A stretch of 64,000 nucleotides of DNA from an uncultured Prevotellaceae bacterium. Lineage in GTDB: Bacteria > Bacteroidota > Bacteroidia > Bacteroidales > Bacteroidaceae. This document shows positions 5,807 through 57,859 of the stretch, in pieces. The stretch's first letter is position 1, and each line of letters begins with the position of its first letter. The notes beneath the pieces are model-generated. The model made no database searches. It worked only from the letters and a program-made list of their open reading frames with translations, and was not told the DNA's origin. Where the stretch lies: positions 2,466-66,465 of the forward strand of contig CALCEL010000027.1 in assembly GCA_937900485.1 (NCBI GenBank), given 5' to 3'. The translations under genes were made by a program, and so were the position numbers.

Positions 5807-6138
5807 CTAACCAGATTTCCTATCCGCACCCCCAATTTTTGCTGTCCGAAACTCCTCTTTTTCCGTTGACACAAGGCAACGAGAAAATGACTTCCGGAAT
5901 TTTCCCGTGTCTTATTCGGCTTTTGAAAATCTCAGGTTAGGATGATGAAAAGTTCAGGTTAGGATTTTTAAATTATCAGACCTGCGTATAGACTACATCC
6001 TAACCTGAGATTTTAAAAAAAGAGACATAAGGTTTTTAAATGCTTTGTTTTAACATTATCAATAAGTTAACCTATTTTTGATAAAAAATGGGCATAGGAA
6101 ATTTCGTCACACCATAAATTGTCCATTATTTCACCATG
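5807..6138 (+). repeat. Copy 1 of the ~330-bp structured non-coding repeat family
   Basis: Colinear with 21563-21894, 32853-33182 and 53861-54189. Contains AGGTTAGGA half-sites in the order > > < < and a subterminal inverted repeat, ATTTCCTAT (5815-5823) with ATAGGAAAT (6094-6102). No conserved ORF. Confidence 0.9.
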
Positions 6139-6205
6139 TGTTTACTGACTTATAACTGCTGCCTTATCCTGATTTTGGTTGACTCGGGTTGATTACATCC
6201 ATTAG

Positions 6206-6325
6206 CAGTTTGTCGAAGATATTTATGTATATAAGGATGCCAAAGGTCTATACATCGAGAAATATGGCGAGCGGGCAAAGAATGCTGTTTTAGTCATCCA
6301 TACCATTCCAGACAATGCTTTGTGA
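6206..6325 (+). pseudogene. Orphan C-terminal gene fragment (TonB-dependent receptor plug / BlaR-TonB C-terminal-like motif)
   Basis: The short frame QFVEDIYVYKDAKGLYIEKYGERAKNAVLVIHTIPDNAL* resembles the '...VLKDA..A.YG.RA.NGVI.I.T' motif. It follows an in-frame stop and has no start codon or upstream body. The surrounding 6139-6890 holds only short broken ORFs. Confidence 0.3.
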
Positions 6326-6868
6326 TGCCTATGTGTCATTCGCCTATCAAAGAAAGGGTAACTATCAGAATATGGATGAGAACAAGGATATGGTTGCGCT
6401 AACCAAGACGTTTATGAATGGTAACCTCAGCGTGAAGATCGAGGATGACGACCTGTTCTGCGGAAGATGTGACGGTTTCTGCTCAACTTCCAGGGCATGA
6501 CTATCGACAATTTCAACTCGTACGACAGCCGTTGCTGTTCTATAACCGTCAGGTATAAGTTCCATCAGTCAAAGTCGAAGTACAAGAGCCAGAGTACAGT
6601 TGACAGAGAGATTGACCGTTTATGACGTTTTTTGTGTGGATGTCGACATGCTCAGCCAGTCATGTCATGATGAGTCTATCAACGCATATCTCCATTAGTG
6701 GATACTGACACCTTTGTGGTCTATACTGAGTCGTTAAACGACTACACCTATTATATACATGTTGCGTATGTATGGAAAAAGGCTGATAAAAACTATTAAT
6801 CAAGAAGAGTTAGATAGAGGCGACGACGACAAGTAATCAGGATAAAAATTCCAAAAATGATTATTTAT

Positions 6869-6899
6869 TTTGCATTCTCTTTATAAATATATAACTTTG
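6869..6899 (+). promoter_or_regulatory. Candidate promoter of dxs
   Basis: TTTG at 6869-6872, a 19-nt gap, then TAacTTTG at 6892-6899, 45 nt upstream of the ATG at 6944. Confidence 0.5.
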
Positions 6900-6943
6900 C
6901 CGTTTAAAATGGGGTGGTTTCGGTCCATCATTATATAGAAGAA

Positions 6944-19962: not shown

Positions 19963-21444
19963 ATGAATATAACACAAAAGCAGCGTTACACCATTATTAT
20001 GTCTGTGTGTGTGATACTTTGGACGGTATCATGCTTTCTGTGGTTCAACACATCATTCAAATATCACTTTTATCATGAGGAACAAAACCAGTTGTTTCTA
20101 CTCGACAGACAATATCTCCTGACGTATTTAGACAAACCGGCGTGGATGGCTTGTATCTCAGGCGACTATCTCACTCAGTTTTATTACTATGAGTATGCCG
20201 GAGCGACAATTGTGAGCGTATCTTTGCTGCTGCTTGCTGTCGTGTTTGCTAAATGTGTGAGACAATGTGCCGATGACTCATATTCTTTCCGGCAATGTGT
20301 GGCGAGTCCGACGTTGTCACTTTGTCTCGTGACTGCCGTAGCCAGGCTCTACCTGTATGAGAACTTCAAGCTCAGCGCCGTTATGGCGTTGCTGGGTGCG
20401 TGCGTGATGATGGCATTCGTTTATCACCCGATAGGCAAGAAAACTGTGAGTTGGTCGTTGACGTGCCGTCTGTTGATGGACATTCTGTTCATAGTACTCA
20501 CAGCATGGATGTTCGGCAATGGCGTGTTCTTGCTGTTGACGATTATGATTGCTCGTGACGTCACCAAGTGCGTGAGGAACAAAAGACTGTCGGCGACTGC
20601 AGTCTCCCGCTCATCGCTGTGTATCGTGCTCACCTTCGTGACACTGATAGTCATGTCTCGTTTCTATCATGTGAACAGAGATAAGTGCCTGATGTATCCG
20701 GCGCAGCTCAAGCTCGTCAGCATGAATGATGTGAGAACTTGGGAGAAAACACTGATGTATGACAACGAATATTACTTCGGCAACTATAACAGAGTGATAA
20801 TGATGTTTGACAAAAATGAGGAGGAAACGACGAGTGAACAGTGTTTCTTCTATTGTCTGAGTCTTGCTAAGATGGGCATGCTGCCTGACCGGCTGATGTC
20901 TATGCGTACTCCCGTTCTCGGCACATTCTTTCATATAGACGAGACCGCGCAGTTGTATACTATAAAGATGATTAACGAGTTGTATTTCATTCTCGGCGAC
21001 ATGACGTATGCGGAGCGAGCCGCACTGATGGCCAACACCTTCTCTCCTTCCGGAAGAAACGTTAGAATGGTGAAGAGGCTGGCGGAGATCAACCTGCTGA
21101 AGGGTGATGAGCGCGCTGCAATGAAATATCTGAGGATTCTTGAGAAAACGATAGTCTATCGTAAGTGGGCTGAGGAGCATACGCCTGGTCATCTCACGGT
21201 GACGGTAAGTAGAGAACTGGAAGAGAAACGTAAGTATCTGAACACTTGTGATGATATCCGCGTCGGCGATGATTGTTACGTCATCCTCACTCAGTTGCTG
21301 ACAAGTAATCCTGACAATACCATCGCTTTAGATTATCTCTTGTGTAGTGATATTTTATCAAGACAGAGGAATCTGTTTGTCAGTGACTATATGAAGTATA
21401 AACCGAGGAAAAAGTCTCTTTACGAGAGTGCACTGATCAGGTAG
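19963..21444 (+). CDS. Hypothetical polytopic membrane protein (multi-TM N-terminal half, helical-repeat C-terminal half)
   Basis: 493-aa ORF in this region, with several hydrophobic helices in the first ~240 aa. It resembles Bacteroidetes DUF-type membrane proteins, but I cannot name the family with confidence. Confidence 0.7.
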   Translation: MNITQKQRYTIIMSVCVILWTVSCFLWFNTSFKYHFYHEEQNQLFLLDRQYLLTYLDKPAWMACISGDYLTQFYYYEYAGATIVSVSLLLLAVVFAKCVRQCADDSYSFRQCVASPTLSLCLVTAVARLYLYENFKLSAVMALLGACVMMAFVYHPIGKKTVSWSLTCRLLMDILFIVLTAWMFGNGVFLLLTIMIARDVTKCVRNKRLSATAVSRSSLCIVLTFVTLIVMSRFYHVNRDKCLMYPAQLKLVSMNDVRTWEKTLMYDNEYYFGNYNRVIMMFDKNEEETTSEQCFFYCLSLAKMGMLPDRLMSMRTPVLGTFFHIDETAQLYTIKMINELYFILGDMTYAERAALMANTFSPSGRNVRMVKRLAEINLLKGDERAAMKYLRILEKTIVYRKWAEEHTPGHLTVTVSRELEEKRKYLNTCDDIRVGDDCYVILTQLLTSNPDNTIALDYLLCSDILSRQRNLFVSDYMKYKPRKKSLYESALIR

Positions 21445-21562: not shown

Positions 21563-21894
21563 TTAACCGGATTTCCTATTCACACCCATAATTTTTGTTG
21601 TTCGAAACTCCTCTTTTTTCGTTGACACTTGGCAACGAAAAAATGCTTTTAAGTATTTTGTCATAGCTTATTCTTCGGTTGAAAATCTTAGGTTAGGGCG
21701 TTGAAAAGTTCAGGTTAGGATTTTTAAATTCTCAGACCTGTATGAAGACTATATCCTAACCTGAGAATTTTAAAAAAGAGACCTAAGGTTTTTAAATGCC
21801 TTGTTTTAAGATTATCAGCAAGTTATCTTAAATTTATACAAAAATAAGCATAGGAAATTTGGTGACGATGTAAATTGTCCATTATTCCACCATG
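21563..21894 (+). repeat. Copy 2 of the ~330-bp structured repeat family
   Basis: Colinear with the other three copies, same orientation. The B1 half-site cttaggt (21687-21693) is exactly complementary to B4 acctaag (21781-21787). Confidence 0.9.
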
Positions 21895-22120
21895 TTAAGA
21901 GGCGGCGAGAGTCGTTCTCCATGGGATGGTCGGACATCTCGGCTTGCGCGAGCTGATAAGCGAGTAACACTACGATACGTTCTTGGCTTAGCTGTACCGC
22001 ACTCTGCCTGACTCCGCGCATTCTGTCATCAACGACAGGGTATCGAGAAATTTCACTTGTAAAACCTTAACCAGACTCGTCGATTTGATATTTTTTTAAT
22101 CGTAGTTTGTCATATATAGT

Positions 22121-22150
22121 AGTAAAGGGTGCCAAACGGCACCCTTTACT
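22121..22150 (-). terminator. Hairpin downstream of the SDR gene
   Basis: agtaaagggtgcc-aaac-ggcaccctttact forms a 13-bp perfect stem 25 nt past the stop at 22175. No clear U-tract. Confidence 0.45.
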
Positions 22151-22174
22151 ATTATATAATATGTAATGTTCCTA

Positions 22175-22981
22175 TTACTTAGGCTGCTTGCCGATGTATG
22201 CCAAGATACCACCGTCAACATACAATACGTGACCATTGACAGCATCTGAAGCGTGAGAAGCGAGGAACACAGCAGGACCACCGAGCTCTGCTGGGTCGAG
22301 CCAGCGTCCAGCCGGAGTCTTGGCGCAGATGAATGAGTCGAATGGGTGTCTGCTGCCGTCAGCCTGACGCTCACGGAGTGGAGCAGTCTGAGGTGTGGCG
22401 ATATAGCCAGGGCCGATACCGTTACACTGTATGTTGTACTCTCCGTACTCAGAGCAGATGTTACGAGTGAGCATCTTGAGACCACCCTTAGCTGCTGCGT
22501 AAGCGGATACTGTCTCACGTCCAAGCTCTGACATCATCGAGCAGATGTTGATGATCTTACCCTCTTTGCGCTCCATCATTTCTGGGAGCACAGCTGCTGA
22601 GACGATGTAAGGAGCGACGAGGTCGACATCGATGACTTGCTGGAACTCCGCTCTCTTCATCTCGTGCATTGGTATACGCTTGATGATTCCAGCGTTGTTA
22701 ACCAAGATGTCAATCTGACCAACCTCTTGATGTATCTTGTCAACGAGAGCCTTGACAGCGTTCTCGTCAGTAACGTCACACACGTATCCCTTAACGTTTG
22801 TGATGCCTGCCTCTTTGTAGTTGTCGAGTCCTCTCTGAAGAGCTGCCTCGTTGATGTCGTTGAATATTATGTTCTTAATACCTGCCTGGACAAAAGCCTT
22901 GGCGATGTTGAAACCGATACCGTAAGAAGCGCCTGTAATCCATGCGTTCTTACCTTCAAGTGAGAAATTAGATAAATCCAT
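22175..22981 (-). CDS. Short-chain dehydrogenase/reductase, gluconate 5-dehydrogenase / KduD-like
   Basis: 268 aa. TGASYGIG cofactor motif, NNAG, and the catalytic S...YxxxK (YAAAKGG). Confidence 0.75.
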   Translation of the reverse strand: MDLSNFSLEGKNAWITGASYGIGFNIAKAFVQAGIKNIIFNDINEAALQRGLDNYKEAGITNVKGYVCDVTDENAVKALVDKIHQEVGQIDILVNNAGIIKRIPMHEMKRAEFQQVIDVDLVAPYIVSAAVLPEMMERKEGKIINICSMMSELGRETVSAYAAAKGGLKMLTRNICSEYGEYNIQCNGIGPGYIATPQTAPLRERQADGSRHPFDSFICAKTPAGRWLDPAELGGPAVFLASHASDAVNGHVLYVDGGILAYIGKQPK

Positions 22982-31837: not shown

Positions 31838-32006
31838 TGAGTGAACGAACGTGCGATAGTGAAGATAAGTGATAAGGGGTGATAGTTAAGACTATGACGA
31901 TACTTGACTTTTCACGTTTAGAATGAATATTAATAACAATTAAATAGCAAGGTGAGGATAAGAGGGCTGCTTGCGGTTCCTCATCCCTCGCTTCAACAAA
32001 ATCATT

Positions 32007-32567
32007 ATGGATGACGTAAAAGTTTTCATTAAAGAGGCTGAGGACTCCATGGAGATGGCTGCATTGCATCTTGAGGAGGCTCTTAGTCGTATCCGCGCCG
32101 GACGCGCTAACGTGCATATCCTTGATGAGGTGCGTGTGGAGTCTTACGGACAGCATGTCCCACTGAGTAACGTTGCCAGTCTTAATACACCTGATGCTCG
32201 TACCATCACTATCAAGCCATGGGAAAAGCAGATGCTGAAGGTTATCGAGAAGGCTATCATCGATTCTCCTGTCGGTATCATGCCGGAGAATAACGGTGAG
32301 ATAATACGTCTTGGTATACCTGCCCTCACAGAGGAGAGACGTAAGGATTTGACAAAACAGTGTTCTAAGGAGGCTGAGACAGCTAAGGTCAGTGTTCGTA
32401 ACGCTCGCCGTGAGGCTATCGACAAACTCAAGAAGTCTGTTAAGAATGGTGTGCCTGAGGATGTAGAGAAGGACTCTGAGGACACAGTGCAGAAGATTCA
32501 CGACAAATATGTCAAGAAGATTGAGTCTATGCTCGAGGTCAAGAACAAGGAGATCATGACTGTGTGA
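32007..32567 (+). CDS. frr: Ribosome recycling factor
   Basis: 186 aa from the ATG at 32007. Contains L...RIRAGRAN..ILD.V.V..YG, PLTEERRK.L.K and similar blocks. Confidence 0.9.
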   Translation: MDDVKVFIKEAEDSMEMAALHLEEALSRIRAGRANVHILDEVRVESYGQHVPLSNVASLNTPDARTITIKPWEKQMLKVIEKAIIDSPVGIMPENNGEIIRLGIPALTEERRKDLTKQCSKEAETAKVSVRNARREAIDKLKKSVKNGVPEDVEKDSEDTVQKIHDKYVKKIESMLEVKNKEIMTV

Positions 32568-32590: not shown

Positions 32591-32627
32591 GGCGGAACAG
32601 GATATTCCTGCTCCGCTTTTTTTGTTG
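32591..32627 (+). terminator. Rho-independent terminator after frr
   Basis: ggcggaacagg-atatt-cctgctccgc stem (one mismatch) followed by ttttttt. Confidence 0.75.
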
Positions 32628-32852: not shown

Positions 32853-33182
32853 CTTACCAGATTTCCTATCCGCCCCCCAATTTTTACTGTCCGAAACTCC
32901 CCTTTTCCCGTTGACACGTGTCAGCGATAAAATGACTTCTGAAATTTTCCCGTGTCTTATTTGGCGTCTGAAAATCTCAGGTTAGGACGTTGAAAAGTTC
33001 AGGTTAGGATTTTTAAACTCTCAGACCTGCGTATTGACTATATCCTAACTTGAGAGTTTCAAAAAAGACACCTGAGATTTTTAAAAGTCTTGTTTTAAGA
33101 ATATCAGCAAGTTAACCGGATTTTAGTAAAAACTAGTCATAAGAAAATTGGTTACACTCCAAATTGTCCATAATTCCACCAG
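32853..33182 (+). repeat. Copy 3 of the ~330-bp structured repeat family
   Basis: Colinear with the other copies. B1 (32971-32982, aaaatctcaggt) is a perfect complement of B4 (33070-33081). B2 (32998-33010) pairs with B3 (33042-33054) with one G-T. The palindrome tgacacgtgtca lies at 32912-32923. Confidence 0.9.
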
Positions 33183-33626
33183 TTTATTTATCTGTTTCTC
33201 ATGCTTTTTGATGTCATGGCCAAGTTGTAGCAACATCCATTAGTAGACTCATGACGGATGAGAGTCCCAGGAGTGGCAATAGTTGTTACCTTGGTGTTTG
33301 CAAATTCTTTTATATCAACTACTTGTGTGTTAAATGACAGGAAGTGATGACGTGGATTCTAAGGAGAATTAAAATGATGAAGATTTTACTTTTATATACC
33401 TCAAATACGTGTTATGATATATATATATCACTTGAATGCCACCTTTTTCCGTGATATGTCAGATTAATTCGAAAGAAATGTAGTATCTTTGCTAAGACTT
33501 TGATGTCTATTGTCTCACGAACCCTTTAGTGTTACTTATCATACTTTTCAGATATACATCTCAGTCAATTATCAATTATGTAAATTATACATGTGAACTC
33601 ATGTGTCAGATTCATTAAAAACAATT

Positions 33627-48911: not shown

Positions 48912-50471
48912 ATGTTAACGAAAATCTTCTCAGCCACGTTACGTGGTTTGGACGCTTTGCCTGTTATTATTGAGGCTGACTCATATTCCACATCATCTCC
49001 TCAAGTGAGGTTTTCTATTGTGGGGTTGCCCGACAATGCTGTAAAGGAGAGTCAGGAACGTATCCTGTCCTCTTTGCGTTTTTATGGCTATAAACATCCA
49101 GTGAAAAATGTCGTTGTCAATTTAGCCCCAGCAGATATCCGGAAAGAAGGCTCAGGCTTCGATTTGCCTATAGCCATATCTCTCCTGTCCGCTTATGACA
49201 TATTGAATTTTCATGATTTGGACCACTGCATGTTTATTGGCGAGTTAGGTCTTGACGGTAGCATTTTACCAGTCAAGGGCGCCCTACCTATATCCATCAA
49301 GGCCCGTGAGTTAGGCTTTGACAGTCTTTTTGTTCCGAAAGACAATGTCAAGGAGGCTGCTGTCGTCAACAAGCTGAAAGTGTATGGTGTCTCAAACCTT
49401 CAGGAGGTTATCTATCATCTTATGGGGCAAGTGGTGTTGGAACCGGAATTCGTTGACACACGCAAAGAGTTTTACGAGAGTCAATGTGATTATGACATCG
49501 ATTTTGAGGACGTTAAAGGTCAGGAAAATGTGAAACGTGCCTTTGAGGTAGCTGCAGCCGGTGGACATAACATTATATTAGTGGGTAGTCCGGGCTGTGG
49601 TAAGTCTATGATGGCTAAGCGCATTCCCACCATCCTTCCTCCATTATCTCTTAGTGAGAGTCTTGAGACCACACAAATACATAGCGTGGCGGGAAGGATG
49701 AAAAAAGACTCGTCGCTGATATCTCAGCGTCCTTTCAGGTCACCTCATCACACGATATCTGTCGTGGCTCTTGTGGGAGGTGGACAGAATCCCCAACCAG
49801 GAGAAGTGAGTCTGGCACATAACGGAGTGTTATTTCTTGATGAGATGCCGGAGCTGAGCCGTAGTGTCCTTGAGGTGTTACGTCAGCCTCTTGAAGATAG
49901 GAAGATAACAATCAGCCGTGTGAAATACAATGTTGAGTATCCCTGTTCCTTTATGTTGGTAGCATCTATGAACCCGTGCCCTTGTGGATATTACGGTGAC
50001 ACTTCTCATCATTGCGTGTGTACTCCTGGACAGATACAGAGATATATGAACAAGATTAGCGGTCCTTTGCTTGACCGTTTCGATATACATTGTGAGATTC
50101 AGGCAGTGCCGTTTGCTCAGCTCTCGCAGATGCAACCGGGAGAGCCAAGTAGAAAGATACGGGAAAGAGTCATCAAGGCGAGACAAATACAGGAGTTGCG
50201 GTTCCGGGAGTTCAAAGGCGTCCATTGTAATGCCCAGATGAACGAACGTATGTTACACAAGTTCGCTGAACCTGATGTCGAGTCACTCTCTATGCTTCGT
50301 ACTGCTATGGATAGACTGAAGCTGTCTGCAAGAGCCTACAGCCGTATATTGAAGGTAGCCAGAACCATCGCTGACTTAGACAGTTCAGAGAACGTCCAGT
50401 CACAGCACATTGCCGAGGCTATTGGTTATCGTAACCTTGATAGAGGTGACTGGGCAGAAAGAGGAATATAA
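48912..50471 (+). CDS. comM: Mg-chelatase-like AAA+ ATPase YifB/ComM
   Basis: 519 aa. Lon-like N-terminal domain, Walker A GSPGCGKSM, Walker B LFLDEMPE, and the Cys cluster CPCGYYGD..H.C.C. Confidence 0.9.
   Translation: MLTKIFSATLRGLDALPVIIEADSYSTSSPQVRFSIVGLPDNAVKESQERILSSLRFYGYKHPVKNVVVNLAPADIRKEGSGFDLPIAISLLSAYDILNFHDLDHCMFIGELGLDGSILPVKGALPISIKARELGFDSLFVPKDNVKEAAVVNKLKVYGVSNLQEVIYHLMGQVVLEPEFVDTRKEFYESQCDYDIDFEDVKGQENVKRAFEVAAAGGHNIILVGSPGCGKSMMAKRIPTILPPLSLSESLETTQIHSVAGRMKKDSSLISQRPFRSPHHTISVVALVGGGQNPQPGEVSLAHNGVLFLDEMPELSRSVLEVLRQPLEDRKITISRVKYNVEYPCSFMLVASMNPCPCGYYGDTSHHCVCTPGQIQRYMNKISGPLLDRFDIHCEIQAVPFAQLSQMQPGEPSRKIRERVIKARQIQELRFREFKGVHCNAQMNERMLHKFAEPDVESLSMLRTAMDRLKLSARAYSRILKVARTIADLDSSENVQSQHIAEAIGYRNLDRGDWAERGI
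50080..50335 (+). repeat. Left copy of the 256-bp perfect direct repeat (inside intact comM)
   Basis: Identical, position by position, to 52933-53188 (offset 2853). Similarity continues in diverged form to the stop codons (50471 and 53324). Confidence 0.95.
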
Positions 50472-50513
50472 ATTTGGTCGTTTAATATAAAATTGTCACT
50501 TTTGCTGCCTATA

Positions 50514-51557
50514 ATGAAAACAAGAAGATTTATCATTTTAAGTATACTTAGTATAACTGTATCATTGCAAACATTAATTGCACAAAGCAACAGTAATAGC
50601 GAATACTATGACAAAGCGTACTCTGAAATAACGGATATGCTGGAAGGCAGAACTGCCTTGTCAATAAGTCGCGCTGTCTTTGTGGCAGAATGGGCTTACC
50701 TTGACGGCAATCTGGACTACGAGAAAGATTTCTGTGAGCCTATCAAGAAAGGAGCGGACTATATGATGCGTATGATTGCTGTCAATCATTGGGAGAAATA
50801 CAAGACAGCGAAACAAATAGCCCTCTGCAACTTTTTCTTTTACCCTTGCTCTGGGAATGGCCAGAAACCTTATGAATACGATTTCAGCAATGAATTCCCC
50901 AATGATGACTGGCACTACCAACTTGTTTCCATAACTATCAAAACACACAAAGGGCAATGCCACTCATTGCCTTGGGCATTCAAGCTGTATGCAGAGGAAC
51001 TTGGTGCAAATGTCTCGCTGACACATGCTCCATGCCATTGTTTCATTATATATAAAGATGAAGACAACTTATTCCCTGAAGACTGGATTAATGTAGAGGT
51101 AACAGCACACCAGTACCAACCGACTTGGGGAATAAAGGAACACTTTGCCATTTCGGATTCGGCAATAGCAGCAGGAACATATCTGACTCCTATTACTGAT
51201 GTCCAAACAGTGGCTTGTCAGTTGGCAGACTTAGCTTTAGGCTATTACCATAAGTATAAGCGTTATGATGATTTTACACTCAAATGCGCCGAAGTATCTT
51301 TGAAATACTATCCCATGAATCCTAATGCAATCATTACCAAGGGGAAATCTCTTGATGCACTTCTACAGCAACATCTTGAACAAAACGGACATCTTCGGGA
51401 TGCATATACAGATGCTATAGACTTACAATCGAGACAATGCATGCAGGACTTAAAAGCAACCCACTGGACTCAAGAGACGGAAGAACTGCGGAACAAATGG
51501 AAGCAAACTCCAGAAGACTTTGAGAATATCAGAAAGAATATACAAATCATAAAATAA
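50514..51557 (+). CDS. Secreted transglutaminase-like (Cys-His-acid) fold protein with TPR-like C-terminal region
   Basis: Signal peptide MKTRRFIILSILSITVSLQTLIAQ. Contains KGQCHSLPWAF ... PCHCFIIY ... WINVEVT in the order expected for a transglutaminase-like core, and a helical-repeat C-terminus. AT-rich relative to its neighbours. Confidence 0.45.
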   Translation: MKTRRFIILSILSITVSLQTLIAQSNSNSEYYDKAYSEITDMLEGRTALSISRAVFVAEWAYLDGNLDYEKDFCEPIKKGADYMMRMIAVNHWEKYKTAKQIALCNFFFYPCSGNGQKPYEYDFSNEFPNDDWHYQLVSITIKTHKGQCHSLPWAFKLYAEELGANVSLTHAPCHCFIIYKDEDNLFPEDWINVEVTAHQYQPTWGIKEHFAISDSAIAAGTYLTPITDVQTVACQLADLALGYYHKYKRYDDFTLKCAEVSLKYYPMNPNAIITKGKSLDALLQQHLEQNGHLRDAYTDAIDLQSRQCMQDLKATHWTQETEELRNKWKQTPEDFENIRKNIQIIK

Positions 51558-51563
51558 AGTATT

Positions 51564-52286
51564 ATGAAAAGATTTAAAAAAGCATTACTGTCAGTCGCTA
51601 TTTCATTAGCAGCAATTAACGCAAACGCATTTCCTTGGATTTCACCGTATGCATATTGTTTAGGGAACCCCGTGGCTGCAATTGATCCAGATGGTAGAAA
51701 AGTAGTATTTGTTAACGGATACCTTGGTTTTGGCTCACCAGAAGGTGGAGAGACCTATTGGAATGGGCATAACTCTTCATTTGTGAAAGGAGCACAATCT
51801 ACATTTAATGATTATGCAACACCATATTTTACTAACTACGATTATAATTATATGAAAAGTGCAAGTATGGTTAGAGAGTCTTTAGGTTATCAATATGCAA
51901 AAGATAATTACAATGCTCTTATCGAGGGTATGAAGCCTGGTGTAGATAAATTTAATTTCGTATCGCATAGTATGGGAGGAGCTTTCTCAGAGGGAATGAT
52001 GAAATATATGTCTGAACAAGGCTGGGAAACCGATAATGCTTTATTCCTAAACGCATGGGAACCATCACGAATTAACACTAAAGTAGAAAAGAATAGGATA
52101 GATGCGACATGTGTCAATGACCCTGTACAATTTCTAAGTAAACCTTTGTTTGGAGATCCAGACATTCCATCTTCTGATGAAAGAATAAGGATAAATAGTA
52201 ATGAGTCAATGATGTATATCCATAGAGATTTAATAGATGGTAATAACGATTTATGGAAACTGATTAATAGTTTCTTATCAAAATGA
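51564..52286 (+). CDS. Orphan Rhs/polymorphic-toxin C-terminal cassette with a lipase-like alpha/beta-hydrolase toxin domain
   Basis: SPYAYCLGNPVAAIDPDGRK (51642-51701) resembles the Rhs-core terminal PxxxxDPxG(R/L) junction. Downstream are VVFVNGYLGFG....YWNG and the nucleophile elbow VSHSMGG (GxSxG), as in secreted lipases. A signal-peptide-like segment MKRFKKALLSVAISLAAINANA precedes it. No YD/Rhs repeats lie upstream. Confidence 0.6.
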   Translation: MKRFKKALLSVAISLAAINANAFPWISPYAYCLGNPVAAIDPDGRKVVFVNGYLGFGSPEGGETYWNGHNSSFVKGAQSTFNDYATPYFTNYDYNYMKSASMVRESLGYQYAKDNYNALIEGMKPGVDKFNFVSHSMGGAFSEGMMKYMSEQGWETDNALFLNAWEPSRINTKVEKNRIDATCVNDPVQFLSKPLFGDPDIPSSDERIRINSNESMMYIHRDLIDGNNDLWKLINSFLSK

Positions 52287-52669
52287 GAATCTTCATCAAC
52301 ATTATTGCAATAATTGCATTTATTATACAATCATTTTCTTTTGTATTAAATGTACTAATTCAAAAGAAACCTGAAAGCACAATAGATTCATTGTATAGCT
52401 ATTTTGTTGTTATAGCTTATCTTTGCTCGGTATTGGTTATTGTTCTGTTTGTCTTATTATATAACTTTGATTTCAAGTTTCTGAAAACAAAAATTCTAAA
52501 TTGTTTCTTCTGTATAGTTGGTTTTCTCGGAACATATATTCATATTTGGCAGTTGTTTATACATAATGACTTCGTATTAACATCATTTGTTTTACTAATT
52601 TTTGATATCTATATCTTTTGTAAAATACTGAGTAGTTTTTTTAATATTAATGACTTGCATATCCAGTGA
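52283..52669 (+). CDS. Small 4-TM membrane protein, candidate cognate immunity protein
   Basis: 128 aa with four hydrophobic helices, very AT-rich. The ATG overlaps the toxin stop (ATGA at 52283-52286), implying translational coupling. Confidence 0.5.
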   Translation: MRIFINIIAIIAFIIQSFSFVLNVLIQKKPESTIDSLYSYFVVIAYLCSVLVIVLFVLLYNFDFKFLKTKILNCFFCIVGFLGTYIHIWQLFIHNDFVLTSFVLLIFDIYIFCKILSSFFNINDLHIQ

Positions 52670-52932
52670 GTCATAGTAGTTCTAACTGCAGTTCTTCCAC
52701 GATGAGTATACAAATAATTATTAATTTTTTGGAATTTACTCTATCTTTTATATACGTTATGCTTATATGGCCAGTATATGAAGGCGAAGATTGTTTATGG
52801 GATTGCTTAATTTTTCAGCTATTAAAACGAATTGCGAAGTAACATAAACGAAATTATGGAGAAAGTAAGCTAGAATGATTCATGCAAATAGTATCTGTCA
52901 GGAATTCTCGGCGTATAAAACCGCAGCACGTA

Positions 52933-53188
52933 TCGATATACATTGTGAGATTCAGGCAGTGCCGTTTGCTCAGCTCTCGCAGATGCAACCGGGAGAGCCA
53001 AGTAGAAAGATACGGGAAAGAGTCATCAAGGCGAGACAAATACAGGAGTTGCGGTTCCGGGAGTTCAAAGGCGTCCATTGTAATGCCCAGATGAACGAAC
53101 GTATGTTACACAAGTTCGCTGAACCTGATGTCGAGTCACTCTCTATGCTTCGTACTGCTATGGATAGACTGAAGCTGTCTGCAAGAGC
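52933..53188 (+). repeat. Right copy of the 256-bp perfect direct repeat
   Basis: Identical to 50080-50335. Confidence 0.95.
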
Positions 53189-53324
53189 TTACAGCAGAAT
53201 ACTTAAAGTGTCGAGGACCATTGCAGACTTGGACGGCTCAGAAAAAATCCTGTCCCGACATATTGCTGAAGCAATTGGGTATAGGAGCCTTGACCGTGGC
53301 GATTGGGCAGAGAGAGGTGTGTAA
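52933..53324 (+). pseudogene. comM: Displaced 3' fragment of comM (last ~130 codons, alternative tail)
   Basis: It encodes IDIHCEIQAVPFAQL...AEAIGYRSLDRGDWAERGV*, with no N-terminal AAA+ part. The ORF-track start at 52875 is a fortuitous upstream extension. Confidence 0.9.
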
Positions 53325-53498
53325 TAAATAAAGGCAAATAACTCTTAATATGAGAAATAATACAGAATCGTTTGCCTTTGTGGAAGAACTGTCTGAAGCT
53401 AATGAAGAAGAGAACGTAATGCAAATCATAGTGAACAGTAAGAAACTATTGGCGATTCAGTTCTAAACGAATGACTCTTGATTTAAGCCGCAGAAACA

Positions 53499-53861
53499 CT
53501 ATCTATGTATTATAGATTCTTTGAATTTATCTTCATATTCTTTTAAAAGTTCGCTAAGTGGAATTCCTAATCGAGTGTTTAAACGTAAGAATTTTCTATT
53601 TGTTACAGAGCGTGCATTCTTAAATAGTCTTGCAGTATCAGACTGATTAAAGCCGAGTGCCGTAAGATATATTAGTATTAAATCTTTGTTGTCTATGTCT
53701 TTGTAGTGTGAAAGAATATTTTTTCTGAGATTTGGATATAGTTTATCTACAGCAATAAACACATCTTCCCACATATCTTGTGTTAAGATGGCTTTTTGAT
53801 TATATTCAATTGTTTTTAGTTCTGTGATTACAGATGATACATCCTTTGCGCTTTCAGCTAC
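53499..53861 (-). pseudogene. 5'-truncated gene for an HTH-type regulator-like protein, cut off at the repeat boundary
   Basis: The frame is open from the repeat edge (VAESAKDVSSVITELKTIEYNQKAILTQD-MWEDV...). The upstream in-frame stop (53862-53864) lies inside the first nucleotides of repeat copy 4. The C-terminus LIYLTALGFNQSDTARLFKNARSVTNRKFLRLNTRLGI looks like a helix-turn-helix. An internal ATG at 53774 gives the 91-aa ORF. Confidence 0.5.
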
Positions 53862-54189
53862 TTACCAAACTTCCTATTCATACCCTCAATTTTTAGTGTC
53901 CAAAACTCCTCTTTTTTAGTTGACACGTGTCAGTGAAAAAATGACTTCTGAAATTTTCCAGTGGCTTATTCGGCGTCTGAAATTCTTAGGTTAGGACGCT
54001 GAAAAGTCAAGGTTAGGATTTTTTAAATTGCAGACCTGTTTGTAGTATATATCCTAACCTGAGAATTTCAAAAAGAAGACCTGAGATTTTTAAAAGCATT
54101 GTAATAAGATTATCAATAAGTTAACCCGTTTTTGATTAAAAAGCAGGTATGGGAAATTTGGTTAAGCGCCAAATTGTCCTTTATTCCAC
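53861..54189 (+). repeat. Copy 4 of the ~330-bp structured repeat family
   Basis: Colinear with copies 1-3. B1 gaaattcttaggttagga pairs with B3 tcctaacctgagaatttc (18 positions, one U-G). The palindrome tgacacgtgtca lies at 53921-53932. Confidence 0.9.
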
Positions 54190-54260
54190 TTTTTTTGAGT
54201 GTTTTTTCCGTCAAATAATCACTTGTCAGTCATATTTCACGTTATTGTCTCTCATTGAGA

Positions 54261-54308
54261 CAAAAAAGAGATCCATTTCATGTCAGCATCGATGCTGTGA
54301 AATGGATC
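54261..54308 (-). terminator. Rho-independent terminator of sufE
   Basis: On the minus strand the long hairpin gatccatttca...tgaaatggatc (inner palindrome cagcatcgatgctg) is followed by tctctttttt. Confidence 0.75.
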
Positions 54309-54359
54309 ATCTTGTCTTTATGTAATAAATCTCTCGTCTCAGTATAGACGCTATACGTC

Positions 54360-54785
54360 TTACGCCTGTTTACTCTTGAATGCCATAGCGTAGAGCTTCA
54401 TTTGTTTAAGCATGGCGAGAAGTCCGTTGGAGCGTGTCGGAGACAAATGCTCTTTGAGTCCTATATCCTCAATGAAATGTATGTCGGCGTTGAGTATCTC
54501 ATCAGGAGTATGTCCTGAGAGGACCCTTATTAACAAGGTGACCAGTCCCTTCACTATCAAGGCGTCACTTTCCGCCTGAAAGACGATGACACCCTCTGAT
54601 GTCAGGTCAGCCTGCAGCCATACTCGGCTTTGGCATCCGTCAATGAGGTTACTCTCGTTCTTGTACTTCTCAGGGAGTGGTTTCTGTTCGCATCCCAAGT
54701 CGATAAGCAACTGGTATTTATCCATCCAGTCGTCGTAATCGGCGAATTCCTCGATTACTTCTTGTTGTATCTCCTCTATAGTCAT
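54360..54785 (-). CDS. sufE: SufE-family cysteine desulfuration (sulfur acceptor) protein
   Basis: 141 aa. Contains the conserved SufE active-site region (GCQS.VW) and the C-terminal SRSNGL-like motif (PTRSNGLLAML). Confidence 0.85.
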   Translation of the reverse strand: MTIEEIQQEVIEEFADYDDWMDKYQLLIDLGCEQKPLPEKYKNESNLIDGCQSRVWLQADLTSEGVIVFQAESDALIVKGLVTLLIRVLSGHTPDEILNADIHFIEDIGLKEHLSPTRSNGLLAMLKQMKLYAMAFKSKQA

Positions 54786-54817
54786 GTCTTGTTGTCTTTA
54801 TTTACGCGTCTGTGGAC

Positions 54818-55819
54818 TTATTCATTCCAGAGCACTGTGAGTATAGTCTGTCCTACAGCTTTCAACGTCTGTTTGTTGATGTTCTCTATATTGTCGTTGG
54901 TGGTGTGCCATGTCTCTGGGAAACCGACACCCTCGTTGTCTGCGCCTATGACATCTATGCAAGGTATTCCGCCGAGGTTGATTTGCACATGGTCGTCTGT
55001 CACGTATCCGCAAGTCTCATTGCAGAAGAAATTGTTATATCCCAGCTTGTTGGCCACGCTCCACACCTTGTCCACGAGTGCTGGAGCATAGTGTAGACTG
55101 TATCGTTCTTTGTAGAACACCGTGTTGTTGCCGCCTACCATGTCCAGGTTGATTCCGTATCTTGCGGTGTATCCGTCCAGATGTCTCACTCCCGACCAGT
55201 ACTGTGAGCCGAGGCACCATGTGGCAGACTCGTCCGTGTCGTGATTACCGTCAAATTCAGGCACCCCACAGTCTTCGGCGTCCCAACATATGAAGTCCAC
55301 GCATATTGACTTCTTTTTCAGCAGTGACGTGTCGCCGTGCAGTGACATGTCCTCGTGCAGTATTCTCGCAATCTCCATCATGACTCCAATGCTGCTCGCA
55401 CCGTCATTAGCTCCGTCGATAGGCGTGTGTGTCTTTTCTGAGTTCTCGTCTTGGTCAGCCCATGGACGACTGTCCCAGTGGCCGGATATTATGATGTGCA
55501 CGTCAGCGTCCGGGTTGACACTGGCAATGATGTTGCGCATCTTTATCTCTGTGCCGTCGTACAGTTTTGAGTCGGCGTACTGATCATACACCTCTGCCCC
55601 GTAGCTCTTGAACACGGATGCTATGTAGTCGCCGCAGCTGTCATGCGCCGCGCTGTTCATCACCCTCGGTCCAAAGTCGCATTGTCTTTTTACAAACATA
55701 AAGGCACTGTCGGCGTCAAAGTCTGGAGCGCTGACAAAAGAGTCAGTCTGACTTGTCTTCTTGTTTCCTCCGCAAGCCGTTACCATCAGTAGTGTGATGA
55801 GGTATAATAATTTTCTCAT
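54818..55819 (-). CDS. M28-family metallopeptidase-fold lipoprotein, glutaminyl-peptide cyclotransferase-like
   Basis: Lipobox VTAC. M28 zinc-ligand pattern (H.DS, D.(A/G)(S/A).G, WDAED.G, H...D). Size and architecture match the type II glutaminyl cyclases described in oral Bacteroidetes. Confidence 0.6.
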   Translation of the reverse strand: MRKLLYLITLLMVTACGGNKKTSQTDSFVSAPDFDADSAFMFVKRQCDFGPRVMNSAAHDSCGDYIASVFKSYGAEVYDQYADSKLYDGTEIKMRNIIASVNPDADVHIIISGHWDSRPWADQDENSEKTHTPIDGANDGASSIGVMMEIARILHEDMSLHGDTSLLKKKSICVDFICWDAEDCGVPEFDGNHDTDESATWCLGSQYWSGVRHLDGYTARYGINLDMVGGNNTVFYKERYSLHYAPALVDKVWSVANKLGYNNFFCNETCGYVTDDHVQINLGGIPCIDVIGADNEGVGFPETWHTTNDNIENINKQTLKAVGQTILTVLWNE

Positions 55820-55823
55820 ACTC

Positions 55824-56696
55824 TTAGTTCGTTGCTTTATTGTTTCCAGCTCTCCACATAAGGTATGCGCCGAGCAAACAGAACGGGATGCTGAGCAACT
55901 GTCCCATGTCGAGAACCATGTTTTGCTCGAAGTCCACCTGTTCCTTTTTCAGGAACTCGATGAAGAATCGGAACACGAATATCGTTGTTATGCAGAAGCC
56001 GAAATAGAATCCGCGTCCAGGCTTATACCTCAGCTCCTTGTCTTGTTTGTTCAAAAAGAAGAGCAGCTGAACCATGAAGATGACGAGATAGGCTATCGCC
56101 TCATACAACTGTGCAGGGTGTCGAGGCGTCAACTGGCCGTTGACCAGTGCCTCGTTGCTGTGAAAGATGAAAGCCCAAGGCACATCCGTCACGTTGCCTA
56201 TTATCTCTGAGTTCATGAGGTTGCCGAGACGTATGAACGCCGCCACGAGCGGCACGGCTATGGCGACATTGTCAATGACGTGTAACATCGGGATGTTCAC
56301 TTTTCTCGCGTACATGATCATGGCTACTATGATTCCTATCGTTCCTCCATGACTCGCCAGTCCTTCGTACCCGCGGTACACCCAGTCCCAGCTGTCAGGT
56401 AAGAAACGTATAGGCAGCAGCATCTCTATGAAACCCTTGGTGCTTGTGAGATAATAGCCTGGCTCATAAAAGACGCAGTGTCCTAACCTCGCTCCGACGA
56501 TGATTCCCACGAAGCAATAGAAGAACAGGGGCTCGAATTTCTCGTCCTCAATCTTTTGCGACTTGTATATCTTCATCACGATAAGATATGCCAGGATAAG
56601 TCCGATGCACCAGCATGCAGAATACCATCGTATGCCGAGAGAGCCTATCCTGAACAACTCTAATGATGGCTGCCAGTCAATATATAATAACGTCAT
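55824..56696 (-). CDS. lgt: Prolipoprotein diacylglyceryl transferase
   Basis: 290-aa polytopic protein with Lgt motifs (IRWY.., GAR.GH, HGG..G, R.GN..N.E..G, HP.QLYE). Confidence 0.9.
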   Translation of the reverse strand: MTLLYIDWQPSLELFRIGSLGIRWYSACWCIGLILAYLIVMKIYKSQKIEDEKFEPLFFYCFVGIIVGARLGHCVFYEPGYYLTSTKGFIEMLLPIRFLPDSWDWVYRGYEGLASHGGTIGIIVAMIMYARKVNIPMLHVIDNVAIAVPLVAAFIRLGNLMNSEIIGNVTDVPWAFIFHSNEALVNGQLTPRHPAQLYEAIAYLVIFMVQLLFFLNKQDKELRYKPGRGFYFGFCITTIFVFRFFIEFLKKEQVDFEQNMVLDMGQLLSIPFCLLGAYLMWRAGNNKATN

Positions 56697-56755
56697 AACA
56701 ATCGTTCGAGATTTATGTTACTGTTATGTTTTGTCGCGTGAGACGAACAAAGAGA

Positions 56756-57859
56756 CTACACGTTAAATCTGAAGTGCATGATGTCACCGTCGTTCACCAC
56801 ATACTCTTTACCCTCCACACCGAGCTTGCCTGCCTCACGAACGGCAGCCTCGCTTCCGTACTTTATGTAGTCCTCATACTTGATCACCTCTGCTCGTATG
56901 AATCCTTTCTCGAAGTCTGTGTGGATGACACCGGCGCACTGAGGAGCCTTCCACCCCTTGCGGAATGTCCATGCCTTAACCTCCATCTCTCCGGCTGTGA
57001 TGAATGTCTGAAGATTCAGGAGTGAGTAGATGGCTTTTATGAGTCTGTTGCAGCCACTCTCCTCCAGTCCCATGTCCTCCAGGAACATCTGTTTCTCCTC
57101 GTAACTCTCAAGTTCGGCTATGTCTGCCTCTGTTTGTGCTGAGATAACCATCAGCTGAGCGTCCTCGTCCTTTATCGCCTCACGTACTCTCTCAACGTAC
57201 TCGTTACCGTTCTTCGCGCTCTTGTCGTCAACGTTACATACGTAAAGGACAGGCTTTGTGGTCAAGAGGAACATGTTTTTTGACGCCTCAATCTCCTCGT
57301 CGTTGTCAAGCTCTACGGTTCTCGCACTTTTTCCGGCGAGCAGCGCCTCCTTGTATTTCAGCAGAACGCCATACTCCACCTTGGCGTCCTTGTCGTGACC
57401 CACGTTTGCAAGCTTCTCTGTCTTCTTTATTCTTGCCTCAACAGTCTCCAAATCCTTGAGCTGTAACTCTGTGTCGATGATTTCTTTGTCCCTGACAGGA
57501 TTCACGGAGCCGTCCACGTGTACGATGTTACCGTTGTCGAAACAGCGCAGCACATGGATGATAGCGTCGCACTCACGTATGTTACCGAGGAACTGGTTAC
57601 CCAGACCCTCACCCTTGCTGGCTCCTTTCACGAGTCCGGCGATGTCCACGATGTCGCATACGGCAGGGACGATACGTCCTGGATGTACTATCTCCGCCAG
57701 TTTTGTTAGTCTCTCGTCTGGTACGCTGACCTGTCCCAGCTGTGCGTCGATGGTGCAAAATGGGAAGTTGGCGGCTTGTGCCTTAGCACTTGACAAACAG
57801 TTGAAAAGAGTGGATTTACCTACGTTAGGAAGGCCCACGATGCCTGCTTTTAATGCCAT
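56756..57859 (-). CDS. ychF: Redox-regulated ribosome-binding ATPase YchF
   Basis: 367 aa. G1 motif GLPNVGKST, DIAGLV, NVxD, and the TGS/YchF C-terminal domain ending DGDIMHFRFNV. Confidence 0.95.
   Translation of the reverse strand: MALKAGIVGLPNVGKSTLFNCLSSAKAQAANFPFCTIDAQLGQVSVPDERLTKLAEIVHPGRIVPAVCDIVDIAGLVKGASKGEGLGNQFLGNIRECDAIIHVLRCFDNGNIVHVDGSVNPVRDKEIIDTELQLKDLETVEARIKKTEKLANVGHDKDAKVEYGVLLKYKEALLAGKSARTVELDNDEEIEASKNMFLLTTKPVLYVCNVDDKSAKNGNEYVERVREAIKDEDAQLMVISAQTEADIAELESYEEKQMFLEDMGLEESGCNRLIKAIYSLLNLQTFITAGEMEVKAWTFRKGWKAPQCAGVIHTDFEKGFIRAEVIKYEDYIKYGSEAAVREAGKLGVEGKEYVVNDGDIMHFRFNV

Follow-up and report, generated by a model that had tools for sequence, protein, structure and literature searches.

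A non-coding intergenic repeat of about 335 bp with a central array of 22-nt units in an uncultured Bacteroidales bacterium

The DNA analyzed here, referred to as the window, is a 64,000-nucleotide stretch of contig CALCEL010000027.1 from an uncultured Prevotellaceae bacterium (assembly GCA_937900485.1). At positions 5926-6037 an initial annotation had described four related half-sites, two direct followed by two inverted with the fourth degenerate, lying within a longer repeat. This arrangement is confirmed, and the 112 nt are the conserved centre of an undescribed non-coding intergenic repeat of ~335 bp. The window holds four copies, all on the + strand and all between genes, which were delimited by an nhmmer search with a profile built from a 65-copy alignment (A3):

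5807-6140, + strand: repeat copy 1, whole element of ~335 bp (E = 2e-105, model positions 4-337)
21563-21895, + strand: repeat copy 2 (E = 9e-97)
32854-33185, + strand: repeat copy 3 (E = 2e-104)
53861-54194, + strand: repeat copy 4 (E = 3e-98)

The repeat family and its central array

Scanning metagenome contigs with one unit of the core (B2, see below) as the pattern yielded 70 loci, all from a single contig block of one European Nucleotide Archive (ENA) set, FLNY01003026-3108. A profile search found 71 copies in these loci (L015-L084), bringing the family to at least 75 copies with the four of the window. The FLNY loci have no DNA in common with the window outside the repeat. Their tetranucleotide profile correlates with that of the window at 0.969 (the two halves of the window correlate with each other at 0.939), and the GC contents are 0.455 and 0.448, respectively. 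Because of this agreement in composition, the FLNY bin most likely represents the same organism. One further intact copy lies outside the FLNY set, in other assemblies (loci L093, L095 and L096).

The host of the repeat is an uncultured Bacteroidales bacterium of sewage or digester metagenomes. Window positions 53062-57285 are 100% identical to a contig of a sewage or 'bioreactor' metagenome (run ERR1278104), and the closest homologues of the ribosome recycling factor come from metagenome-assembled genomes (MAGs) of Bacteroidaceae and Prevotellaceae, with top matches at 84-93% identity. Two exact core patterns found no relatives in species-representative genomes, just TTAGG-type simple repeats, and the repeat was absent from viral contigs (three scans) and from plasmid and phage records (blastn). 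A relaxed half-site pattern likewise matched only TTAGG-type simple or telomere-like repeats, unrelated to the element, in MAGs of Betaproteobacteria and Thermoanaerobaculales (L004-L014). Across the whole window Rfam gave no match at the gathering score and, below threshold, only generic hairpin (miRNA-precursor) matches of 15-25 bits; no tRNA or tmRNA was found for the region. Literature on the motif and on Bacteroidales repeats offered nothing specific. The family matches none described in Rfam or in the searched literature; its general kind is already known.

The core consists of three near-invariant 22-nt units, with the 19-nt consensus motif TGAAAnnyTYAGGTTAGGA, and a degenerate fourth. 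In copy 1 these are:

5924-5945, + strand: unit B1, consensus TGAAAATCTTAGGTTAGGACGT, core AGGTTAGGA at 5934-5942; columns 126-147 of alignment A3
5946-5967, + strand: unit B2, TGAAAAGTTCAGGTTAGGATTT, core at 5956-5964; direct repeat of B1, exactly 22 bp downstream
5979-5984, + strand: short partner GACCTG; with CAGGTT of B2 it makes up the inner hairpin of most predicted folds
5995-6016, - strand: unit B3, inverted; reverse complement TGAAATTCTCAGGTTAGGATAT, core TCCTAACCT at 5998-6006
6017-6037, - strand: unit B4, degenerate and in inverted orientation; the family consensus, reverse-complemented, is AAAAACCTTATGTCTCTTTTT; 22 bp beyond B3

A script check found the half-site coordinates and complementarities given earlier to be exact. 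In copy 1, with B1 placed at 5926-5942, B2 at 5953-5965 and B3 at 5997-6014, positions 5998-6014 are the perfect reverse complement of B1, and B3 also contains a 12-nt complement of B2. In copy 3, 32971-32982 is a perfect complement of 33070-33081, and in copy 4 B1 and B3 lie at 53979 and 54052.

The window contains 28 matches to AGGTTAGGA with at most one mismatch, vs 11.2 +/- 3.8 expected, a number that none of 100 shuffles reached. The perfect matches form four clusters, each of two direct and one inverted site, one cluster per repeat copy. The core of B1 is exact in 57 of the 65 aligned copies. Spacing is strict: B1 and B2 are exactly 22 bp apart, the cores of B2 and B3 are separated by 42 bp, and not one of the 65 copies has an insertion or deletion between alignment columns 100 and 217. 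Across these copies, repeated sites at helical-phase spacing are thus conserved as sequence, as expected of a protein-binding array.

The left boundary of the element is sharp. Random sequence gives way to T-N-ACCAGATTTCCTATCC (T-N-A-C-C), so that the 5' end reads T-N-ACCAGATTTCC. The 3' end is AAATTGTCCnTTATTCCACC, not complementary to the 5' end; the element terminates with CAAATTGTCCnTTATTCCACC, and conservation fades into a T-rich flank past CCACC. The parts outside the core, again numbered in copy 1, are as follows:

5810-5823, + strand: 5' subterminal arm ACCAGATTTCCTAT, complementary to 6094-6107; absent or replaced in about one third of copies (B-type 5' end)
5836-5855, + strand: conserved 5' block TTTTTaCTGTCCGAAACTCC; its TTACTGTCCG recurs in the inverted-repeat end of an IS4-family element that this organism carries
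5864-5881, + strand: hairpin or palindrome H1, CGTTGAC...GTCAACG; family consensus GTTGACACGTGTCAAC, a 16-bp palindrome
6094-6107, + strand: 3' arm ATAGGAAATTTCGT, kept even in copies without the 5' partner
6116-6135, + strand: conserved 3' tail AAATTGTCCnTTATTCCACC, end of the element; all four occurrences in the window lie inside copies, with none expected by chance

The 5' and 3' arms form a 14-bp inverted pair, the 'closing helix', whose 3' arm lies ~28 bp inside the 3' end. Copies of the B type begin with CCATTTCGCACATTTTTC and lack the 5' arm, with the 3' arm CATAGGAAATTTgGT unchanged. A subterminal hairpin, AATTTGG/CCAAATT, lies ~15 nt from the 3' end, and 7-8 hypervariable nucleotides (columns 316-323) separate AAATTTGG from CCAAATT.

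Base pairing, mosaicism and strain variability

With DNA parameters the cores of copies 1-4 fold far more stably than shuffled sequence (z = -6.1, -2.9, -3.1 and -2.7), and for the whole element z is -4.3 (+ strand) and -5.3 (- strand). The predicted folds agree with the initial annotation, i.e., B1:B3 in copies 1 and 4, and nested B1:B4 plus B2:B3 in copies 2 and 3. Over the alignment the B1:B3 helix spans 17-20 bp and is 96.5% paired, and the inner hairpin (columns 157-162 with 181-186) is 97.7% paired and essentially invariant.

From the four window copies it had been argued that differences between copies are matched on both arms, and that such compensatory changes point to selection on base pairing. 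The pairs cttaggt/acctaag in copy 2 and ctcaggt/acctgag in copy 3 are present as described, and among the four copies the matching holds; among 65 copies, however, the two positions vary independently of their partners. Apart from B1:B3, RNAalifold retained just two small helices, its covariation term was about 0 (-0.25 kcal/mol), and the column pairs with the highest mutual information are neighbouring columns (linked local variants), none of them a helix pair. The sole polymorphic pair of B1:B3 (columns 135 and 209) is UG in 20 copies, UA in 17, CG in 16 and CA in 10, with the two sides independent. The B1:B4 position that seemed compensatory in copies 2 and 3 is UA in 33, CA in 23, UG in 4 and CG in 3, and about half of the copies have ACAC or ACAT versions of B4, which are unable to pair with B1. 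Two structural models were compared with 500 shuffles:

Closing helix, H1, B1:B3 and inner hairpin: 94.1% of cells paired (93.8% when shuffled), a value reached by 8 of 500 shuffles; covariation score 0.092 vs 0.087, reached by 11 of 500
Nested B1:B4 plus B2:B3: 87.5% paired, matched or beaten by 327 of 500 shuffles in percent paired and by 210 of 500 in covariation score

The marginal excess of the first model is within the range that relatedness alone can give, and the nested model scores as shuffled alignments do. Compensatory change therefore no longer argues for selection on base pairing. Four copies are too few for such a claim, as two positions that match in four sequences prove independent in 65. 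In paired columns, transitions that make wobbles numbered 108 (51 A>G and 57 C>T) vs 138 that make mismatches (63 G>A and 75 T>C). Choosing a strand by asymmetry of G-U over A-C was rejected, because there is no overall excess of wobble-making changes; the many G-U states of H1 (columns 65-69 with 78-82, 91% paired) amount to ~4 wobble vs ~4 mismatch events.

Of the proposed conformational switch, the mutually exclusive pairings are thermodynamically possible: in 24 of 65 copies the B2:B3 fold is either more stable than B1:B3 or falls short of it by no more than 2 kcal/mol. From copy to copy, however, the difference in energy between these folds runs from -11.6 to +15.2 kcal/mol, so no tuned switch is conserved, and since the 65 copies show no compensatory changes, a switch in RNA lacks support. 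The arms can indeed pair, no selection for pairing as such could be detected, and what is conserved is the sequence of the arms and not their pairing. The alternative offered at the outset, an array of binding sites for a protein, is the better fit, since not only the two arms but also the unpaired B2 keep their sequence, at a fixed, indel-free spacing.

Pairwise identity between copies averages 78%, with a nearest-neighbour median of 84% and a maximum of 94.5%, and the window copies are no nearer to one another than to other copies. Conservation is uneven: 10-column bins range from 64-74% in some places to 94-100% in the core, and the variable stretches coincide with spacers and predicted loops. 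Private variants, i.e., those seen in a single copy, are spread evenly at ~0.5 per column (12 vs 11 expected in the B1 arm, 10 vs 11 in the B3 arm), and shared variants gather outside the core. For 11 common markers, which form 55 pairs, each pair shows all four allele combinations; the copies are therefore all different mosaics, assembled from a restricted set of block alleles. Mosaicism extends to orthologous positions. One FLNY copy, split by an insertion sequence (IS) between L038 and L078, has the same 5' junction, CATTGGAAGACCATTGTCTTATG followed by TTACC, as its intact counterpart L093, and the two differ at ~13% of positions by swaps between family-wide block alleles. Mosaicism and the pattern of private and shared variants together suggest short-patch exchange between copies, and a core that is constrained in what is propagated and not in each resident copy.

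Presence of the element varies among close relatives. In genomes that match the window at 96.3% identity over dxs and downstream, the element is absent from this locus, and an outer-membrane barrel gene, intact, lies 387 nt upstream of dxs. In the window, copy 1 and a GH16 gene precede a remnant of that gene:

6326-6705, + strand: what is left of an outer-membrane beta-barrel gene at its 3' end, lying outside the element; 88% identical to the 3' end of the relatives' intact gene

Likewise, the window has the order frr, copy 3, ABC transporter gene, and relatives have rsgA directly after frr. As relatives differ at the dxs and frr loci, the copies sit at strain- or species-variable junctions.

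Nature of the element

We favour, with confidence about midway between acceptance and rejection, the explanation that the element is an interspersed repeat of a selfish or mobile type, in whose core putative protein recognition sites stand in a phased array. The repeat, which would be mobile or formerly mobile, occupies intergenic gaps, mostly at gene 3' ends, and its copies exchange short blocks, perhaps by gene conversion or template switching, which makes each a different mosaic. One sequence-specific protein, whether an enzyme or a host factor that propagates or uses the element, would recognise the array and act on duplex DNA or on a single-stranded hairpin of the array. The complementarity of B1, B2 and B3 and their alternative pairings would then arise because direct and inverted copies of one site are present, without being a selected feature.

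Several points weigh against this explanation. Protein binding is read from the conservation pattern, and a protein that recognised a folded single strand would equally call for strict spacing and conserved arms. The invariance of B2 in the metagenome copies is partly ascertainment, because B2 (columns 148-170) was the search pattern; it is intact in the four window copies. The ends of the element have no terminal inverted repeats, and no target-site duplication was seen in the flanks of 40-60 copies, where the two sides are unrelated and share only a T-rich tendency at the 3' side. No clean empty site was recovered at the frr, SDR (short-chain dehydrogenase/reductase) and dxs loci of relatives, because these neighbourhoods are rearranged there, and any transposition is putative. 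The absence of near-identical pairs means that there is no sign of a very recent burst. An autonomous partner, solo ends or gene-flanking ends were not found in the window and loci (~730 kb), the DNA to which the searches below also refer. The one multi-copy transposase in this DNA belongs to an IS4-family element (DUF4372 and DDE_Tnp_1) with its own 18-19-bp inverted repeats, TATTACTGTCCGCTAAAC, and this element inserts into the repeat and is not flanked by repeat ends.

Other origins were considered for the repeat and set aside. A miniature derivative of the IS4-family element was rejected, since TATTACTGTCCGCTAAAC shares TTACTGTCCG with the 5' block of the repeat and no further homology, and the two TGTCCG motifs of the repeat are direct and not inverted. 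Insertion of an element into a pre-existing short repeat was rejected too, because no solo 5' or 3' end motifs were found; solo occurrences of the 3' tail, in particular, are absent from the 730 kb. L038 (1-180) and L078 (12545-13965) are the two sides of one IS4-family insertion with a 9-bp duplication, ATTATCAAT, and L081 (1-360) has a second such insertion in a repeat copy, after B2.

It is unlikely that the repeat is instead a domesticated host site, i.e., a platform for a nucleoid-associated, architectural or regulatory protein, or an orientation-independent 3'-end hairpin comparable to repetitive extragenic palindromic (REP) sequences and bacterial interspersed mosaic elements (BIMEs). 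REP and BIME elements bind gyrase and integration host factor (IHF) and stabilise upstream mRNA. By crude calls of open reading frames (ORFs), neighbouring genes are convergent at 20 copies, divergent at 4, and co-directional at 6 in the sense and 9 in the antisense orientation. Copies thus lie preferentially between convergent genes, beside gene ends, and a hairpin that works either way round would fit the lack of preference among co-directional pairs (6 vs 9). The strongly uneven conservation of sequence blocks in copies that average 78% identity, including the conserved block TATCA(R)nAAGTTAAC, is also consistent with a host function. A WATCARNNNNTTR-like sequence, TATCAATAAGTTA, at 6057-6069 is a candidate IHF/HU-type site by what we take to be the IHF consensus, but the chance of such a match somewhere in an AT-rich sequence of 335 bases is ~5%, and this motif was one among several tried. 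Private mutations in the core arms number 22 against 22 expected, a count at which a two-fold depletion would be rejected; because they are not depleted, purifying selection on individual copies is not visible, and copy 1 is missing from close relatives.

A structured RNA or single-stranded DNA, in which B1 and B2 of a core hairpin compete for B3 and B4 is a fourth partner, forming a switch in transcripts or a small RNA, is quite unlikely. It would account for the folding energies of the element and of the cores (z = -2.7 to -6.1), for variable blocks that fall in predicted loops, for the pairing of the closing-helix model marginally above shuffles, and for the accessibility of both folds in a third of the copies. 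Yet covariation is lacking where it could be tested, with a C-A mismatch at the sole polymorphic core pair in 10 of 65 copies, and the marginal closing-helix signal does not exceed what related sequences would give. A third of the copies lack the 5' arm of this helix and still have an unaltered 3' arm, and the energy difference between the folds is not conserved. The - strand folds as well as the + strand, and no orientation is preferred with respect to co-directional genes. Neither a conserved Bacteroidetes TAnnTTTG promoter nor a sigma-70-like promoter is common to the copies, no intrinsic terminator was found within the element, and Rfam holds no relative. As judged for a structured non-coding RNA family, then, the element shows no covariation-supported base pairs and no match to a described family.

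To a more speculative proposal we attach little probability: the 335-bp element, with its asymmetric ends, its lack of a target duplication and its central phased array of three sites, could be the cis module of an undescribed Bacteroidales mobility or chromosome-organising system, propagated and continually re-assorted blockwise by a sequence-specific protein that would act on the hairpin or the array; alternatively, the competing B1:B3 and B2:B3 folds could form a true switch that a protein of this sort would read in single-stranded DNA or RNA. Were the element such a module, the enzyme might be of a single-strand or copy-choice type. Nothing yet points beyond an ordinary selfish or architectural repeat.

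A miniature derivative of a hairpin-dependent single-strand transposon (IS200/IS605, or REP with its REP-associated tyrosine transposase, RAYT) or of a transposon with multiple subterminal 22-bp sites (Tn7, Mu) is very improbable: the lack of terminal inverted repeats and target duplications, the sharp T-N-A-C-C boundary, the 3' subterminal hairpin and the two direct and two inverted 22-bp sites recall such elements, but the second base of the left boundary T-N-A-C varies, the base before ACC is no fixed target motif, the sites lie in the middle of the element, ~120 bp away from each end, and not at its termini, no copy encloses a gene, orientation shows no bias with GC skew (30 of 57), and tblastn of the window and loci with approximate IS608 TnpA, IS200 TnpA and RAYT queries found no Y1/HUH homologue (best E > 1).

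Among known systems, those that the element most resembles in behaviour are structured repeats of the BOX, REP or bcr type. Pneumococcal repeats are described in PMC3049150, and stem-loop repeat families are surveyed in PMC2267715. Like BOX of Streptococcus pneumoniae and bcr1 of the Bacillus cereus group, the repeat is a dispersed, non-coding, intergenic sequence of one to a few hundred bp in ~100 copies, with strong stem-loop potential and a modular or mosaic make-up, located near gene ends and without a transposase of its own. Unlike BOX, it has a fixed length and not a variable number of boxB-type modules; unlike either, it has a central three-unit array of 22-nt sites in fixed phase, belongs to a different phylum and has no sequence relationship to them.

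REP/BIME elements and REP doublets (REPINs) of Enterobacteria and Pseudomonas resemble the repeat in being extragenic and palindromic, in occurring in either orientation at gene 3' ends or between convergent genes, and in conserving sequence rather than only pairing. They are thought to be bound by proteins (gyrase, IHF, RAYT), as the repeat putatively is. REP units, however, measure 20-40 bp and occur singly or as inverted doublets, whereas this element measures 335 bp and has asymmetric ends; REP/REPIN has RAYT, and no RAYT-like gene was found in the window and loci by the tblastn search with an approximate query.

The repeat is also small, non-coding, multi-copy and intergenic like MITEs (miniature inverted-repeat transposable elements), such as Correia of Neisseria and MITE239/MITE464 of Porphyromonas gingivalis, and like them it differs in presence between strains and is sometimes found at rearrangement junctions. 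The size, lack of coding capacity and copy number agree with the name MITE, whereas the element lacks the terminal inverted repeats and target-site duplications that define MITEs, and the window and loci yielded no related autonomous IS. Finally, TnsB sites of Tn7, Mu ends and plasmid iterons presumably share with the core ~20-nt sites, a spacing of 22 bp and a combination of direct and inverted copies, but their arrays stand at transposon termini or a replication origin and here the array is internal to a dispersed 335-bp unit.

For a bacterial repeat, a fixed central array of three identical sites and complete block mosaicism, even between orthologous copies, are unusual. Metagenome assemblies break at dispersed repeats of this kind, which also mark rearrangement junctions and can pass for regulatory RNAs; short-read contigs of this organism stop ~60 nt into the element. 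If a binding partner were found, it would offer a handle on the spread and homogenisation of such repeats in Bacteroidales.

Neighbouring genes and further features

The window neighbours of the repeat are ordinary Bacteroidales housekeeping genes, among them dxs, frr, sufE, and genes for a DUF6057 protein, an SDR and comM. Copy 2 lies between the convergent DUF6057 (19963-21444, + strand) and SDR (22175-22981, - strand) genes, copy 3 downstream of frr (31971-32567), and copy 4 between a duplicated comM fragment and sufE (54360-54785, - strand). Polarity with replication was considered and rejected: the four window copies are all on the G-rich strand, but only 30 of 57 copies in other loci are, and there is no bias.

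The 770-bp 'non-coding' gap upstream of dxs (6141-6913) holds the remnant at 6326-6705, a 3' fragment similar to OMP_b-brl_3 and TonB-dependent receptors, and relatives carry a segment of ~100 bp that is absent at window position 6705. Intergenic palindromes of ~46-52 nt beside copy 2 (22113-22158) and copy 4 (54266-54313) are probably the terminator hairpins of the minus-strand SDR and sufE genes. A canonical terminator-like hairpin follows frr at 32592-32616.

Near copy 4, comM (Mg-chelatase-like, 48912-50471) is followed by three genes without a Pfam match (50493-52669) and then by a duplicated 3' fragment of comM (52875-53324). The direct repeats of 300 bp at 50076-50375 and 52929-53228 are 96% identical, and the segment 48912-53324 gives the appearance of a small island that integrated into comM at its 3' end. 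The ENA assembly of the same organism breaks at 53062, within the comM duplication.

The element carries no coding signal, the entropies of the three codon positions being equal (0.46, 0.47 and 0.44). A small protein was considered, as most copies have an open 17-codon ATG frame whose stop is the TAG of B1, and was rejected because the peptide varies freely. Variable loops acting as guides, as in a bridge RNA or omega RNA, were rejected as well: ten variable blocks, the hypervariable 7-8 nt of columns 316-323 among them, match the flanks of their own copies no more often than those of other copies.

In a minority of copies a T-run is swapped for an A-run, so that CCTCTTTTT becomes CCACAAAAT and CCTATTTTT becomes CCTAAAAAA. 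These swaps, at A3 columns 57-62 and 279-284 (~5856-5861 and 6073-6078 in copy 1), destroy the predicted T5:A5 stems of two hairpins. Directly 5' of the element, about 45 nt upstream, L054, L053, L063 and L018 have a conserved sequence in common (CACAGGTTATCCCCCATAAGAAATACACTCATAAG...), which may represent either another family of short repeats or a longer form of the element itself. A different upstream sequence is common to L026 and L033.

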